Origin: Ferrovibrio sp.
GTDB taxonomy: Bacteria > Pseudomonadota > Alphaproteobacteria > Ferrovibrionales > Ferrovibrionaceae
Direction: 5' to 3'
DNA: 64,000 bases
Assembly: GCF_025869515.1 (NCBI RefSeq)
Contig: NZ_JAOZVR010000055.1
Span: forward strand, 389 to 64,388
Made by a program: the position numbers and the translations under genes. The first letter of the stretch is position 1. Each line of letters starts with the position of its first letter. Of the stretch, positions 14,457-19,126 are shown in pieces. The notes under the pieces are model-generated. The model worked only from the letters and a program-made list of their open reading frames with translations. It was not told where the DNA came from and made no database searches.

Positions 14457-15365
14457 ATGGCTCTTCCCCGCCGTTTTCTGCCGCCGCTTTCCGCGCTGAC
14501 CGCCTTCGAGGCGGCGGCCCGGCATGAAAGCTTCACCGCGGCCGCCAGCGAACTCAATGTCAGCCAGGCCGCGGTCAGCCGCAGGGTGCAGCTGCTGGAG
14601 GAATTGCTGGGCCTCACGCTGTTCGAACGCATCCGCCAGCGCGTGGTGCTGACGCCTGCCGGTGCAGGTTACGCCAGAGAATTACAAGACGCGCTGGGGC
14701 GTATCGGCGCCGCCACCGTCAACACCATGGCGGCGCGCAGCGGCAATGCCATCCTCACCGTGGCGACGCTGCCCACTTTCGGCACGCGCTGGCTGATCCC
14801 ACGCCTGCCCGCTTTCGCGGAGGCGCATCCGCAGATCACGGTGAACCTGCCGACGCGGATCGAGACGTTCGATTTCGCCGCCGAGCCGCTGGATGCGGCG
14901 ATCTCGTTTGGCGATCCGGTCTGGCCCGGCGCCGTGGTCGACCGCCTGATCGAGGAAGAGCTGGTGCCGGTGGTATCGAAAAAACTGCTGGCCAGGCATC
15001 GCATCCGCAAACCGGAAGACCTGTTCAAACTGCCGCTGCTGCAGCAATCGACGCGGCAATCGGCCTGGGCCGACTGGTTCGCCGCCGTGAATGTCGCCGC
15101 CCCGGCGGTGCCGCTCGGGCCGCGCTACGGCCAGTTCGCCATGGTGGTGCAGGCCGCCGTGGTCGGCCTGGGCGCCGCCATCGTGCCGCGCTTCCTGGTC
15201 GAACCGGAACTGAAGGACGGTAGCCTGGTGGTGCCGTTCGAGCAGAGCATCGGCAGCAAGCAGGCCTACTGTCTGTTCTACCCGGAAGCGCGCCGCAACG
15301 ATCCGGCGCTCCGCGCCTTCCGCGACTGGCTGCTGGATGCGGTGAAACAGGCGCCCAAGCGATAG
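14457..15365 (+). CDS. LysR-family regulator (GcvA-like), probable GcdR
   Basis: [29 protein letters not shown]; divergent to gcdH. Confidence 0.92.
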
Positions 15366-15446
15366 CAGCCTGTCAAACGCTAACGCTCGCAGTCCTTCGT
15401 TCTGCACCTCGCACCCCATAACCATCATCCTCGACGCCCCATAAAC

Positions 15447-15564
15447 CGTCATCCTCGGGCCCAAGGAATGCTTCTTGGCCAAGGATCCATCTGCCCAAGC
15501 CAACATGCACCGGCCGATACGCGTAGGGTTGGGATGGACCCTCGGAATAAATCCGAGGGTGACG
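15447..15564. repeat. Inverted doublet of CGTC-tagged REP-like hairpins
   Basis: Plus copy CGTCATCCTCGG...CCAAGGATCCATC (15447-15491); minus copy reads CGTCACCCTCGGATTTATTCCGAGGGTCCATC (15533-15564). Confidence 0.8.
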
Positions 15565-15620
15565 ATGGGAGGGATAGCGTATCCAGCAGTGATATCACCG
15601 ATATCAAAACGCCCTTCTGA

Positions 15621-15735
15621 GTCCCATTCCGGTCCATTCCGATACGGGTCCGTCCCATTCGATGCCGAATGCGTCCCATTCAGTGCTGTAAGAGTCCCAT
15701 TGCGTGCTGAAAGCGTCCCATTGCGTGCTGAATCG
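15621..15735. repeat. Degenerate tandem array with 21-bp period and a GTCCCATT core
   Basis: CCATT starts at 15624, 15634, 15655, 15676, 15697, 15718; the last two units are nearly identical. Confidence 0.85.
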
Positions 15736-15820
15736 TGACGAGCGGGATCAGGCCGCTCTGCCGACGGCGCATACAAAGATATTCACGATGTCGACTGTGG
15801 CGCACTGCGCAAATCGCAGC

Positions 15821-15850
15821 TTGACATTAAGAACATATACAGTACACAAT
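15821..15850 (+). promoter_or_regulatory. Sigma70-like promoter with a LexA-like GAAC-N7-GTAC in the spacer
   Basis: TTGACA 15821-15826; weak -10 CACAAT 15845-15850 (18-bp spacer); GAAC 15831-15834 and GTAC 15842-15845. Confidence 0.45.
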
Positions 15851-15903
15851 ACTAGGATTAAAATCAATTCATTTTATCCATTGCCATTTCCCGGAGCCAC
15901 CCG

Positions 15904-17319
15904 ATGAGCACCTTACTGCTCCCGAACGACAACGACCCCTTCGACTTCTCCGGCTCCGTCGGCCGCAACGGCGACAACGACCGCGCCGATGTAATCAAGG
16001 CGCAGATGCTGCTGTCGTCGATGGGCGAATATGACCTGCCCGCACCGGGCTTGCCGACCGGCTGGGCCGGCGAGCCGCTGTTCCGCGCCATCGGAAAGGT
16101 GCAGAAGGCCAATGGCCTGCCGGTCGATGGCCTGCTGCTGCCGCTGCGCGACGGCAGAGTCGGCGAGAATGGCGAAGGCGAGACGCTGATGAGCCTGCAG
16201 GACCTGCTGGGTGAGCGCCTGCGCGGCCAGCCGATCCCGACGCCGCCGCAGGTCGACAGTTTTTTCGAGACTTACGCCCGCGATCCCGATACGCCGCCGC
16301 CTTATCGCACGATGGAGAAACGCGACAGCGACCCAACCCCTCCGCCGCGAACCAAGGAGGTGCGCGGGCCGCAGCCGGAACCGCGTATCCAGCTGCTGAA
16401 TGCGAGCATGACCGACGAAGCACCGGCATCGCCACCTGCCGCAGGCGAGCAGACAGCCGCGCTGCCCGCCGCACTTATCCCAGCGCTGCCGTACTTGCTG
16501 GGAACGGGCGCGCTGGCCTTAGGCGCAGGAGAATATGCGCGGCGTCAGTATGAGAAGGGCAGCGCCGAGACCATTACTCCTCCGCCTTCACGCCCGCTTG
16601 GCGATACGGAAAAAGAGCAAGTGACCGCTCCGCCGTCGCAGTCGCCTGCAATTGACGCATCGCTGCAAGGCCGACCGGCGGCAGACAAACTACCCGATAA
16701 CGAACGCCTGATCCCGCCCGAGACGAAAGACTGGATTTCAGGTTTGCCGCCGGCACAGCAGCCAGTGGCGGAGGGGCTGGCCGGGATTATCGTCGAGCTC
16801 AATCCGCATGGCAGCCGCGGCAAACCGGAAACCGAGAAGGCCAACCGCATCATGGTGCGGACCTGCCTGGAAGAATTGCAGGCCTATCCGGATCTGGCAG
16901 GTCGTTTGGAACACGTTGCGGGTGCGAGCCTGAGGGGCGACGAAGAAGGGAAATATATGAAAGAAGAAGTCATCCGGGCCAGTGAGGGCAAAACATTCAG
17001 CCGCCCAGATAGTACTTTCGGAAGATTCGACGCAGAGAAAAAGGTCGATCAGGCCTCCCCGTACACGGCCCGCATGAATACGGTCGATATCAAGAAAACC
17101 GGCGACGAGCATGATCAGTCGGGCCTGACCGCCAACGAGGGCCGACGCTTCGATAAACTGGAAACCAACATCAAAGTTGGCGTTGCCGGCTGGGCCCGCA
17201 AGATGAAGCCCGGTGAGAGCGAGGCGCAATATGCAGACTATGTTGCGTCACGCTGCCGTGCGATGTGGGATGATCTGGATGGCAAACTGCGGCGGGATGG
17301 CCTGCTACAAAACAGGTGA
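15904..17319 (+). CDS. Peptidoglycan-binding-like N-terminal domain plus unknown C-terminal domain; candidate toxin
   Basis: SVGRNGDNDRADVIKAQMLL...AIGKVQKANGLPVDG; Pro-rich linkers; one hydrophobic segment; C-terminal E...SRPD...NTVD...T..E. Confidence 0.6.
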   Translation: MSTLLLPNDNDPFDFSGSVGRNGDNDRADVIKAQMLLSSMGEYDLPAPGLPTGWAGEPLFRAIGKVQKANGLPVDGLLLPLRDGRVGENGEGETLMSLQDLLGERLRGQPIPTPPQVDSFFETYARDPDTPPPYRTMEKRDSDPTPPPRTKEVRGPQPEPRIQLLNASMTDEAPASPPAAGEQTAALPAALIPALPYLLGTGALALGAGEYARRQYEKGSAETITPPPSRPLGDTEKEQVTAPPSQSPAIDASLQGRPAADKLPDNERLIPPETKDWISGLPPAQQPVAEGLAGIIVELNPHGSRGKPETEKANRIMVRTCLEELQAYPDLAGRLEHVAGASLRGDEEGKYMKEEVIRASEGKTFSRPDSTFGRFDAEKKVDQASPYTARMNTVDIKKTGDEHDQSGLTANEGRRFDKLETNIKVGVAGWARKMKPGESEAQYADYVASRCRAMWDDLDGKLRRDGLLQNR

Positions 17320-18021
17320 GTGGTCATGCGTAAATTGAAAATCGACCAACCCGAGATCGTGAAAGTCGAGCCATTGGTGCGACCCAGCATGCTCAGCCGG
17401 TATGTCTGCCTGAGTCCGGTGGACTGGAAGCTGTTTGCAACGGCGCTGGTCGAGGCGTTTCCGGATGCACTTTACAACCGTCATTTGACCATCGAAGAAA
17501 TAAGAGGGGCCGAACAGCCGGAAGTTCGTCTTGAGCGAACCCCCTGGCATCCCGACCTGACATATCCGATTGAAGTGCATTTTGATCCGGCAACCCAGCT
17601 TAATCTGAAAAAAGGCGTTGGCTGGCTTATCACCGTCAGAGGACAGTCTTGGCCCCAGATTTTCTTGGGAGGACCTGTCGATCCTAAACCAGCCGATGCG
17701 AATGGACCCGAGCATTTCGGTGAAGGACAGATCGAGATTCATACAGCGCCACATCACAAGGGCCACGCTCGCTTCGCACGGCAGATCTACCGTCTGCTGG
17801 CGCAATTCACCACCAACGAGCGGCAGATCCGCGTGCGCTACCCGCATTACGACGTGATGCCTGAGCCACCAGGGCCGCCACTGTTCGGACTCTGGATCGG
17901 GCATGATGCATTGCGCTGGGCGCGCGAGGATCCGAAGCGGTTGCTGGCATATGAACGATCGTCGATGTCAACGCGCACGCCGGATAACCTAGGGTACGGT
18001 TATCGGCCGAAGGGCCCATAA
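17320..18021 (+). CDS. Hypothetical protein, candidate immunity protein
   Basis: Abuts the upstream stop (GTG 17320 or ATG 17326); atypical codon use; no recognisable family. Confidence 0.55.
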   Translation: MVMRKLKIDQPEIVKVEPLVRPSMLSRYVCLSPVDWKLFATALVEAFPDALYNRHLTIEEIRGAEQPEVRLERTPWHPDLTYPIEVHFDPATQLNLKKGVGWLITVRGQSWPQIFLGGPVDPKPADANGPEHFGEGQIEIHTAPHHKGHARFARQIYRLLAQFTTNERQIRVRYPHYDVMPEPPGPPLFGLWIGHDALRWAREDPKRLLAYERSSMSTRTPDNLGYGYRPKGP

Positions 18022-18023
18022 AA

Positions 18024-19037
18024 TCAGCCCGCCGTCGCATACCCCCGCAGCGCCGCGAGGTGCCGCTGCTTCGCCGCCTCGTCAATGAACGCCGCGCGGA
18101 AGCCGTTTTCCGCCAGCGCGACGATCTCGTCGCGGCTCAGATCCAGCGCCTGCTGCACGGCGCTGTAATTCTCGTTCACATAGCCGCCGAAATAGGCCGG
18201 ATCGTCGGAATTCACCGTCGCCACCAGCCCGGCCTGCAGCATGCGGCGCAGCGGATGCTGTTTCATGTCGTCCACCACGCAGAGCCGCAGGTTGGAGAGC
18301 GGGCAGACGGTGAGCGGTATCTTTTCGCGTACCAGCCGCGCCACCAGCGCCGCATCCTCCAGCGACCGGTTGCCGTGGTCGATGCGATCCACTTTCAGCA
18401 GGTCGAGCGCCTCCCACACATAGTCGGGCGGCCCTTCCTCGCCGGCATGGGCGACGGCCTTCAGGCCAAGCTCATGCGCGCGGGCAAACACGTTTTTGAA
18501 TTTCGACGGCGGATGGCCCTTCTCCGACGAGTCGAGGCCGACGCCGATGAAGCGATCACGCCATGCCAGGGATTCTTCCAGCGTGCGCAGCGCGCTGGCT
18601 TCATCCAGATGCCGCAGGAAACACAGGATCATGCCGATGGTCATGCCGAACTGCCGCTCGGCATCCAGCTTCGCCCGCCACAGCCCGTCGATCATGGTTT
18701 TGAACTTCACGCCGCGGTCGGTATGACCCTGCGGATCGAAAAAGATTTCGGCATGCCGCACGGTCTGGGCGGCGGCACGGCGGAAATAGGCCATGGCGAG
18801 GTCGTAAAAATCCTGCTCGGTCAGCAGCACGCCCATGCCCTGGTAATACAGATCGAGGAAATCCTGCAGGTTGCCGAAGCGATAGGCGGCGCGCAGCGCC
18901 TCCACCGAGTCGTACCGGAAGGCAACGCCGTTGCGCTGCGCCAGCGCATACATCAGCTCCGGCTCGAAAGTGCCCTCGATATGGACATGCAGTTCGGCCT
19001 TGGGCAGGCCGGCAATGAAGGCGGACAGATCGGTCAT
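18024..19037 (-). CDS. add: Adenosine/adenine deaminase
   Basis: LPKAELHVHIEG...HAGEEG...RIDHG...VCPLSN...NSDDPAYF. Confidence 0.93.
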   Translation of the reverse strand: MTDLSAFIAGLPKAELHVHIEGTFEPELMYALAQRNGVAFRYDSVEALRAAYRFGNLQDFLDLYYQGMGVLLTEQDFYDLAMAYFRRAAAQTVRHAEIFFDPQGHTDRGVKFKTMIDGLWRAKLDAERQFGMTIGMILCFLRHLDEASALRTLEESLAWRDRFIGVGLDSSEKGHPPSKFKNVFARAHELGLKAVAHAGEEGPPDYVWEALDLLKVDRIDHGNRSLEDAALVARLVREKIPLTVCPLSNLRLCVVDDMKQHPLRRMLQAGLVATVNSDDPAYFGGYVNENYSAVQQALDLSRDEIVALAENGFRAAFIDEAAKQRHLAALRGYATAG

Positions 19038-19126
19038 GGCGGCAAGGGTAGCGCGGGCGGTCCGGCGCGACAATCATCGCCTGCGGCGCTATACTTCCGC
19101 CAAACCCGCAACAGAAGGCGAAAACG

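Follow-up and report, generated by a model that had tools for sequence, protein, structure and literature searches.

A candidate polymorphic toxin-immunity cassette with a peptidoglycan-binding head and a nuclease-like tip in Ferrovibrio

Results

Architecture of the gene pair

Between a gcdR-like regulator gene and the adenosine deaminase gene add of Ferrovibrio sp. (NCBI RefSeq assembly GCF_025869515.1, contig NZ_JAOZVR010000055.1, positions 389 to 64,388 of the forward strand; this 64,000-nucleotide stretch is hereafter the window) lie two consecutive open reading frames (ORFs), which we call gene 1 and gene 2 (Table 1). We propose that they probably make up one cassette within a family of polymorphic toxin-immunity genes found almost exclusively in Ferrovibrio, with gene 1 encoding a leaderless modular toxin with a nuclease-like tip and gene 2 the cognate immunity protein. 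An initial annotation, made from the sequence of the window alone, had already placed two ORFs without a gap between gcdR and add, and their coordinates hold; the spacing is 0-6 nt, depending on where gene 2 starts, and translational coupling of the two genes is therefore plausible. The ATG is the more likely start of gene 2, because homologs open with MRK and an AGGTGA sequence overlaps the stop codon of gene 1. The ORF list has no third gene in the insert, and an Rfam scan of the insert returned nothing credible.

Gene 1 opens with a constant region, termed here the N-module, in which PG_binding_1 (PF01471) was detected at residues 27-76 (positions 15982-16131) with 28.5 bits against a Pfam gathering cut-off of 23. 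This is the peptidoglycan-binding-like start that the initial annotation had described, and it is the only Pfam match in gene 1; paralogs carry the domain at 28-42 bits. The matches of the N-module in PDB and PHROG are endolysins and wall enzymes. The linkers that follow are Pro-rich as annotated, at 24% and 15% Pro, and the reported hydrophobic Gly/Ala segment is indeed present between them at residues 189-207 (16468-16524), although with a Kyte-Doolittle value of 1.57 it is only borderline as a membrane helix. The sequence of gene 1 has no N-terminal hydrophobic signal region, in agreement with the earlier statement that protein 1 has no signal peptide.

The cassette had also been described as visibly atypical in composition. 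This is true of the tip and of gene 2, with G+C contents (GC) of 58.3% and 56.7%, respectively, but not of the N-module, which at 66.7% is host-like (whole window, 65.6%); the drop in GC begins at the tip.

Table 1. Features of the insert and its flanks, in window coordinates (REP, repetitive extragenic palindromic; AF2, AlphaFold2)
Feature	Position	Strand	Basis or detail
Left flank, LysR-type regulator (gcdR-like), core gene	14457-15365	+	Pfam HTH_1 and LysR_substrate
Intergenic leader 5' of gene 1	15366-15903	+	REP-like repeats, 21-bp-period array, promoter-like site
Gene 1 (modular toxin candidate, 471 aa)	15904-17319	+	ORF list
Constant N-module, residues 1-130	15904-16293	+	MSLLP..DPF.F.GSVGR start, PG_binding_1, extension GETL..L...PTP..VD.F.
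Pro-rich linkers around hydrophobic Gly/Ala segment	16294-16710	+	Composition, hydropathy; swap breakpoint near residue 180 (~16443)
Two pre-tip helices and tip domain, residues 270-471	16711-17316	+	AF2 model, conservation, Foldseek
Candidate active-site residues H337; E354; P368-D369	16912-16914; 16963-16965; 17005-17010	+	Conservation
Candidate active-site residues N392-T393; E412; K433	17077-17082; 17137-17139; 17200-17202	+	Conservation
Gene 2 (candidate immunity protein, cytoplasmic)	17320-18021	+	233 aa from GTG 17320, more likely 231 aa from ATG 17326
Right flank, adenosine deaminase (add), core gene	18024-19073	-	Pfam A_deaminase, E = 8e-91

Different tips are exchanged on one constant head

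One view of how the cassette varies comes from the same chromosomal junction (caiB-gcdH-gcdR ... add-DUF308-kinase) on a metagenome contig, L035. There, a 366-aa protein matches residues 1-179 of gene 1 at 81% identity, and its remainder is an unrelated, weak SLT-like lytic transglycosylase tip followed by a 103-aa protein with two membrane helices instead of gene 2. Between the L035 allele and the nuclease-type alleles the N-module is 91-95% identical, as against <22% beyond residue 180 or so. Another site lies downstream of ndk; it is occupied in one genome (locus L036) by an N-module, an SLT tip and a 109-aa membrane protein, and in our own genome (G000) by a tip remnant and an intact gene 2 paralog on contig C95. 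The tip and the downstream gene have thus been replaced together behind a retained head.

Clustering of the C-termini from 18 further loci of the genus, taken with the paralogs of our own genome and the L035 and L036 alleles, yielded at least seven tip classes on the N-module in the genus: nuclease-like, GH108-like with PG_binding_3, SLT-like, GH104-like ('ESSGRYN...GAYQF'), GH24-like ('TIGYGH'), papain-like and one unknown. The expectation of the initial annotation, that relatives would share residues 1-130 and differ in tips and downstream genes, was therefore realised, with paralogs and homologs sharing residues 1-130 or 1-180. The N-module itself occurs in 17 of the 24 genus genomes, in up to four copies each. 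About 45 full-length homologs of gene 1 (39-90% identity) were found, all of them from Ferrovibrio or unclassified metagenome-assembled genomes (MAGs); the named ones are F. terrae or Ferrovibrio sp.

Further members of the family were seen in our own genome. Three N-module genes lie within 8 kb on contig C116 (109958-117511; L002, L006 and L011), with thiolase and oxidoreductase genes between them: one for a 391-aa protein whose C..H tip is papain-like, with a 312-aa ORF behind it that has a signal peptide; a 120-aa ORF consisting of the N-module only; and a nuclease-tip/partner pair of 476 aa and 239 aa, which overlap in ATGA. The papain-tip protein (C116:110990-112165) shares with many distant tip-bearing proteins an extra conserved Y.PDPMGRLG.G.W, then ..AWR.G, ahead of the peptidoglycan-binding domain. 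On contig C114 (3090-4951; L003), the N-module is the head of a 441-aa protein that continues with a GH108-like 'EEGG' domain and PG_binding_3, an arrangement with five similar loci in the genus, and a convergent 179-aa ORF with a signal peptide is a candidate periplasmic immunity protein. The proteins P0042/P0027 and P0034 were considered as frameshifted copies of gene 1 and rejected, being intact proteins of the N-module and SLT-like type.

Gene 2 follows the nuclease-like tip and no other

The product of gene 2 matched no family in Pfam, NCBIfam, PHROGs, PADLOC or PDB sequences, which bears out the earlier remark that protein 2 belongs to no recognised family, and has neither a signal peptide nor a membrane helix. 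A gene 2 homolog lies directly 3' of every nuclease-like tip locus examined, namely C55 and C116 of our own genome, two loci each in G012 and G002, the genomes G004, G015, G016, G005, G031, G033 and G018, and one distant metagenome locus, where it is kept even at about 30% tip identity. Twenty gene 2 homologs share contigs with gene 1 homologs. Next to hydrolase tips, no gene 2 homolog was found (0/11 loci). Instead, six of these 11 loci have, downstream and in the same orientation, an ORF whose product carries a signal peptide or membrane helices; the papain-like tip on C116 likewise has a downstream ORF with a signal peptide, and on C114 the ORF with a signal peptide is convergent to the hydrolase-tip toxin gene. 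The location of the partner thus matches the compartment in which the tip would be expected to act, wherever a partner could be identified, and this is the logic of immunity proteins.

Partner genes also occur without an intact toxin. On C95, the intact gene 2 paralog is preceded by what is left of a G004-like tip, its final 26 codons (88% identity), and on C107, also in our own genome, an N-terminal remnant of gene 1 is followed by another gene 2 paralog. In G004, one toxin gene is followed by two tandem copies of gene 2.

Two further observations concern the fate of the partner gene. In G006 (L063, C2:117900-122900), the toxin is broken into two pieces, an N-module ORF of 296 aa and a tip fragment of 153 aa, with the gene 2 homolog intact downstream; this looks like decay of the toxin with retention of the immunity gene. 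Long variants of gene 2 (P0065-P0072, for example the second F. terrae copy) open with MSL(L/Q)P..EETRP.RFPG..., like the start of gene 1. This gene-1-like start (MSLLP..F..G.V.R) suggests in-frame deletions within the toxin gene, which may have fused the toxin start to the immunity gene and left the latter on the toxin promoter.

The pair is an accessory insert between core genes

The same gene pair occupies the gcdR|add junction in G000, in the complete genome G012 and in G002. In G001 and G007 the junction is empty and the core genes abut. In G004 (L027, C21) it holds an ORF of about 135 aa that is OsmC-like, with gene 1 on another contig of that genome, and the junction can therefore be regarded as a general hotspot for accessory genes. 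On its left side, the LysR regulator adjoins acyl-CoA dehydrogenase and CoA-transferase genes (gcdH/caiB-like), and gcdR identity to sister genomes is 82-95%, both where they carry the insert and where they do not. The flanking proteins are 91-95% identical, compared with about 70-77% for genes 1 and 2. The pair is an accessory, fast-evolving insert. No phage genes were seen around the loci; the neighbours are housekeeping genes.

The tip was found in nine of 19 genus genomes (G000 counted), and in two of 307 genera in a class sample of 400 genomes; a phylum sample of 400 other genomes yielded none. A search for related loci with a narrower alignment returned only Ferrovibrio and unclassified MAGs, and we consider the family to be nearly confined to this genus, as far as these genome samples reach. 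The initial annotation had read the two genes as a toxin-immunity pair. Tip and partner covary strictly, partners occur as orphans and in tandem, and the pair is an accessory insert, as that reading predicts; the toxin-immunity reading is well supported by comparative genomics.

The tip has a restriction-endonuclease-like core in its model

The C-terminal domain, given as roughly 190 aa in the initial annotation, is a conserved domain of about 170-200 aa, and the motifs noted in it (E...SRPD...NTVD...TxxE) hold up and are conserved family-wide. When the tips alone are aligned, R305, T310, C321, H337, E354, D369, T393, K433, C451 and several glycines are invariant; N392, replaced by Q in a single member, and E412 come close to this. 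Scanned in full, 1.84 billion representative proteins yielded only 35 clusters of the tip family (E <= 0.001). In every case the tip forms the C-terminal part of the protein; these proteins are 146-547 aa long, and most of them have a PG_binding_1-like head; a few have other, unrecognised N-termini.

No sequence match to the tip was obtained from Pfam (Tox-REase and PDDEXK models included), NCBIfam, PHROGs, PADLOC or PDB; the PDB was queried with single sequences and with a profile, and the hits it gave were all PG_binding_1 matches of the N-module. The AF2 model of the tip is confident, with a predicted local distance difference test score (pLDDT) of 90.3 and a predicted template modelling score (pTM) of 0.78. 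Its core runs in the order alpha-beta-beta-beta-alpha-beta (helix 308-325, strands 335-339, 370-373 and 389-394, helix 410-422, strand 427-432), which is the order of the restriction-endonuclease-like, or PD-(D/E)xK, fold. P368-D369 opens strand 2, N392-T393 lies within strand 3, and a further helix follows the last core strand. The Foldseek lists from PDB and BFVD are dominated by PD-(D/E)xK nucleases, none of them significant: the neighbours include MGME1, NotI, a Cas4-like protein and many phage proteins of the PD-(D/E)XK nuclease superfamily, as well as the cap-snatching endonucleases of arenaviruses, nairoviruses and influenza virus. From the model topology and these neighbours, we regard the tip as a new domain of alpha/beta type whose core is restriction-endonuclease-like, a fold assignment with moderate support, and its identity as a PD-(D/E)xK nuclease as plausible.

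Outside the genus, a 490-aa protein of another alphaproteobacterial genus (L049, G027:C8:65292-68603) joins a different, Ala-rich N-terminal part to a homolog of the tip (hhalign 92%). Two tandem paralogous ORFs (244 aa and >213 aa) lie downstream; these reach hhalign 2.5% against the gene 2 family and are not counted as gene 2.

Discussion

A model for the cassette

Based on these observations, we propose the following model. The product of gene 1 would be made without a leader, and its constant front (residues 1-130, up to about 180) would bind peptidoglycan. Everything after about residue 180 (the Pro-rich spacers, the hydrophobic segment, the two pre-tip helices and, over about 170 aa, the putative catalytic tip) is exchangeable jointly with gene 2. 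The tip may cleave nucleic acid in the cytoplasm of a competitor, with D369 of the PD motif that opens strand 2, H337, E354, N392/T393, E412 and K433 as the likely catalytic residues, and the hydrophobic segment may help it to cross the inner membrane of the target. The product of gene 2, translationally coupled and cytoplasmic, would bind and neutralise the tip in the producer.

The logic of such a system is known. Zhang et al., 2012 (PMC3482391) set out the framework of polymorphic toxins, in which PGB1 is listed only as an accessory adhesion domain and not as a constant head. The gene pair shares with polymorphic toxins such as CdiA-CT/CdiI, Rhs-CT/RhsI and MafB with its orphan cassettes a constant N-terminal region with recombining C-terminal tips, an adjacent downstream immunity gene that changes with the tip, orphan or tandem immunity genes with tip remnants, a tip/immunity cassette of lower GC and a strain-variable distribution. 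It differs from them in lacking a signal peptide and any trafficking domain described so far (Rhs, FHA/TPS, PAAR, LXG, MafB-N or others), in the shortness of the proteins (about 300-550 aa), and in tip and immunity families without a match in the libraries searched. One hallmark of polymorphic toxins, a recognised trafficking domain or secretion system, is missing from the pair.

A likeness in the arrangement of the head is found among effectors of type VI secretion systems (T6SS). T6SS effectors with an N-terminal PG_binding_1 and diverse toxin domains have been described from vgrG loci of gammaproteobacteria (PMC10673891, Commun Biol 2023), and in both cases PG_binding_1 stands N-terminal to diverse tips. 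In contrast to these effectors, the loci described here lie among housekeeping genes, in a genus in which the T6SS sheath gene TssC was found in 0/24 genomes, and no Hcp was found in our own genome, which is 94.7% complete. The same results, with the Pfam searches, agree with the initial annotation that no hallmark of T6SS, contact-dependent inhibition (CDI) or Rhs is present.

Bacteriocins of the colicin, pyocin and pesticin type offer a second comparison. The nuclease colicins E2-E9 are paired with Im proteins, and pesticin is a muramidase with a periplasmic immunity protein, Pim; none of these bacteriocins is known to need a dedicated secretion apparatus. Their leaderless modular layout, with a C-terminal cytotoxic domain (putative in our case) and an adjacent immunity gene, is the layout of the pair, and the location of the partner fits the target in the same way, being cytoplasmic for the nuclease-like tip and periplasm-facing for the wall hydrolases. 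The pair showed no sequence or fold similarity to colicins, no lysis gene and no recognised Tol or TonB box. In addition, its head binds peptidoglycan, as judged from its domain, and not an outer-membrane receptor, and its locus is on the chromosome, with core genes on either side. Neither a Tol nor a TonB box was recognised on inspection of the conserved MSLLP..DPF.F start, a result to which no formal motif test was added.

The CdiA-CT toxins are said to be two-part toxins, in which a cytoplasm-entry domain is followed by a nuclease domain. The exchangeable part of gene 1 has a similar make-up, a hydrophobic and pre-tip region followed by a putative catalytic tip, and the former accompanies the putative cytoplasm-acting tip and is absent with periplasm-acting tips, a correlation that is incomplete; there is no homology to CdiA-CT. 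Finally, the tip model resembles the PD-(D/E)xK superfamily, Tox-REase included, in its core order, the PD at strand 2 and its conserved acidic residues and Lys, and differs in the N-T-x of strand 3, the Lys after strand 4, and an invariant His and two invariant Cys.

Alternative explanations

Gene 1 might instead encode an inner-membrane protein of the producer itself, bitopic, with the peptidoglycan-binding part in the periplasm and the nuclease-like part in the cytoplasm under the restraint of gene 2, so that the pair would be a toxin-antitoxin or abortive infection system sensing envelope damage. Such an arrangement would make use of the hydrophobic segment at residues 189-207. Acidic residues precede this segment and R/R/K follow it; under the positive-inside rule, which is established for the orientation of membrane proteins, this gives an N-out, C-in topology. 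The cytoplasmic nature of gene 2 and the lack of any secretion system that tracks the family would also fit. However, at least five kinds of peptidoglycan hydrolase carry the N-module (91-95% identity) with neither the hydrophobic segment nor a signal peptide, so that the periplasm must be reached by other means; the segment is Pro/Gly-rich, borderline, and missing in several homologs of the tip; and no PADLOC defence family was matched. Moreover, some 190 residues at the N-terminus would have to cross the membrane unaided by a signal peptide, which is unusual and counts against this arrangement. We consider it unlikely.

The cassette could be a toxin-immunity pair, as we propose, and yet carry a tip that is not a nuclease, with C321, H337 and C451 (together with D369 and E354) forming a metal or thiol centre as in a peptidase, an amidase or a nucleotide-modifying enzyme. 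The two invariant Cys and the invariant His, the missing canonical (D/E)xK and the lack of a significant fold match all speak for such a centre. Against it, the weak structural neighbours, drawn from two independent libraries, are for the most part by far PD-(D/E)xK nucleases and not peptidases, and the PD dipeptide stands at its canonical place before strand 2. A papain-like Cys-His-Asp centre of C321, H337 and D369 is ruled out, as C321 lies late in a long helix of the AF2 model and not at a helix N-terminus as in papain-like enzymes. We give a non-nuclease tip a low probability.

That the N-module proteins are domesticated endolysin-like or autolysin enzymes with holin-like or regulatory partners, the tip of gene 1 being non-toxic with a role in the wall or envelope and gene 2 a chaperone or regulator, is in our judgement very unlikely: modular endolysins from phages of Gram-negative bacteria usually have PG_binding_1 ahead of a catalytic domain and lack a signal peptide, the PDB and PHROG matches of the N-module are of this kind, and the 103-115-aa two-helix proteins behind SLT-type tips are of holin-like size with a basic tail, but no locus has phage genes, the neighbours being housekeeping and the flanks core genes, neither gene 1 nor gene 2 gave a PHROG hit, while the replacement of tips at one site, the orphan and tandem partners and an evolution faster than that of the flanks point to conflict, the tip of gene 1 is unlike any wall hydrolase by Pfam and Foldseek, and long Pro-rich linkers are atypical of endolysins.

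Weighing the toxin-immunity model

Several results weigh against the toxin-immunity model. We identified no export signal or export system for gene 1, Pfam recognised no trafficking domain in gene 1 or in the distant tip-bearing proteins, and the N-module may be just a wall-targeting domain. None of the 35 clusters places the tip on Rhs, CdiA, PAAR, LXG or other classical scaffolds. The tip has no significant Foldseek match: the best E value was 0.34 in PDB and 0.016 in BFVD, with TM-scores of 0.15-0.35. Its strand 3 has N-T-x in place of the canonical (D/E)xK, and the conserved Lys comes after strand 4, so that the active site would be atypical; because the canonical motif is not in place, we can only infer nuclease chemistry. 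For gene 2, the AF2 model is of moderate confidence (pLDDT 70), and Foldseek returned no significant fold, only weak noise resembling Bet v 1/PYL proteins. Moreover, several homologs with a nuclease tip have no hydrophobic segment (Kyte-Doolittle 0.8-1.2), and the correlation between segment and tip type is therefore incomplete.

The conserved E354, E412 and K433 are located away from the signature positions of strands 2 and 3, and migration of active-site residues is known in the PD-(D/E)xK superfamily. The proposal of the initial annotation, that the tip is a divergent PD-(D/E)xK-like nuclease, finds support in the core topology and the type of structural neighbour, and falls short in that neither sequence nor structure gave a significant match and the canonical (D/E)xK is absent. 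The data show the architecture, the replacement of cassettes, the strict linkage between tip and partner, the orphan partners and the accessory distribution; toxicity of the tip, immunity through binding by gene 2 and the route of delivery are inferred from them.

Possible routes of delivery

How a leaderless toxin of this kind would leave the producer and enter a rival is intriguing. We rejected the T6SS, the type IV secretion system (T4SS) and contractile sheaths as routes because their presence does not track the family: besides the results for TssC, VirB4 was found in nine of the 24 genus genomes and is absent from complete genomes with three to four N-module genes, and phage-type sheath genes were found in three of the 24. 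Open candidates are a release and uptake like those of colicin or pesticin, or an undescribed pathway. The initial annotation took the N-terminus to define an uncharacterised route of delivery; in essence this region is PG_binding_1 plus its conserved extension, and it may serve only to target the wall. Within the latter, we tentatively suggest that the N-module, start and extension together, may be the recognition element of a route that involves no T6SS, T4SS or contractile injection and that carries at least seven kinds of tip into rivals, the hydrophobic segment being the inner-membrane entry device of a cytoplasm-acting tip; this remains a rather doubtful proposition. The hydrophobic segment is found in the clade of gene 1 and in several distant proteins with a nuclease tip, and is absent from all proteins with a hydrolase tip, a pattern that may fit an inner-membrane entry element.

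The cassette brings the logic of polymorphic toxins to a genus in whose 24 searched genomes TssC was not detected, in short leaderless proteins whose only constant part is a peptidoglycan-binding domain. If our model is correct, it would add a new toxin domain family, probably an atypical nuclease of the restriction endonuclease fold, and a new family of immunity proteins. With one head and at least seven tips, it would also provide a tractable case for the release and import of leaderless toxins. Versions that would act in the periplasm and in the cytoplasm are both found at one chromosomal site, and alleles with and without the hydrophobic segment offer a direct contrast for what crossing of the inner membrane requires.

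Additional features of the locus

The leader between gcdR and gene 1 is made, from 15430 to 15735, of repeat families that are dispersed in the genome. A REP-like palindromic unit lies at about 15430-15570 and an array with a period of 21 bp at 15621-15735; in BLASTN searches both matched dozens of contigs of our own genome, and we thus ruled out that the repeats are specific to the toxin loci and that the array is an iteron of this locus. A promoter scan gave a promoter-like site, TTGACA-18-CACAAT, at 15821-15850, about 55 nt 5' of gene 1.

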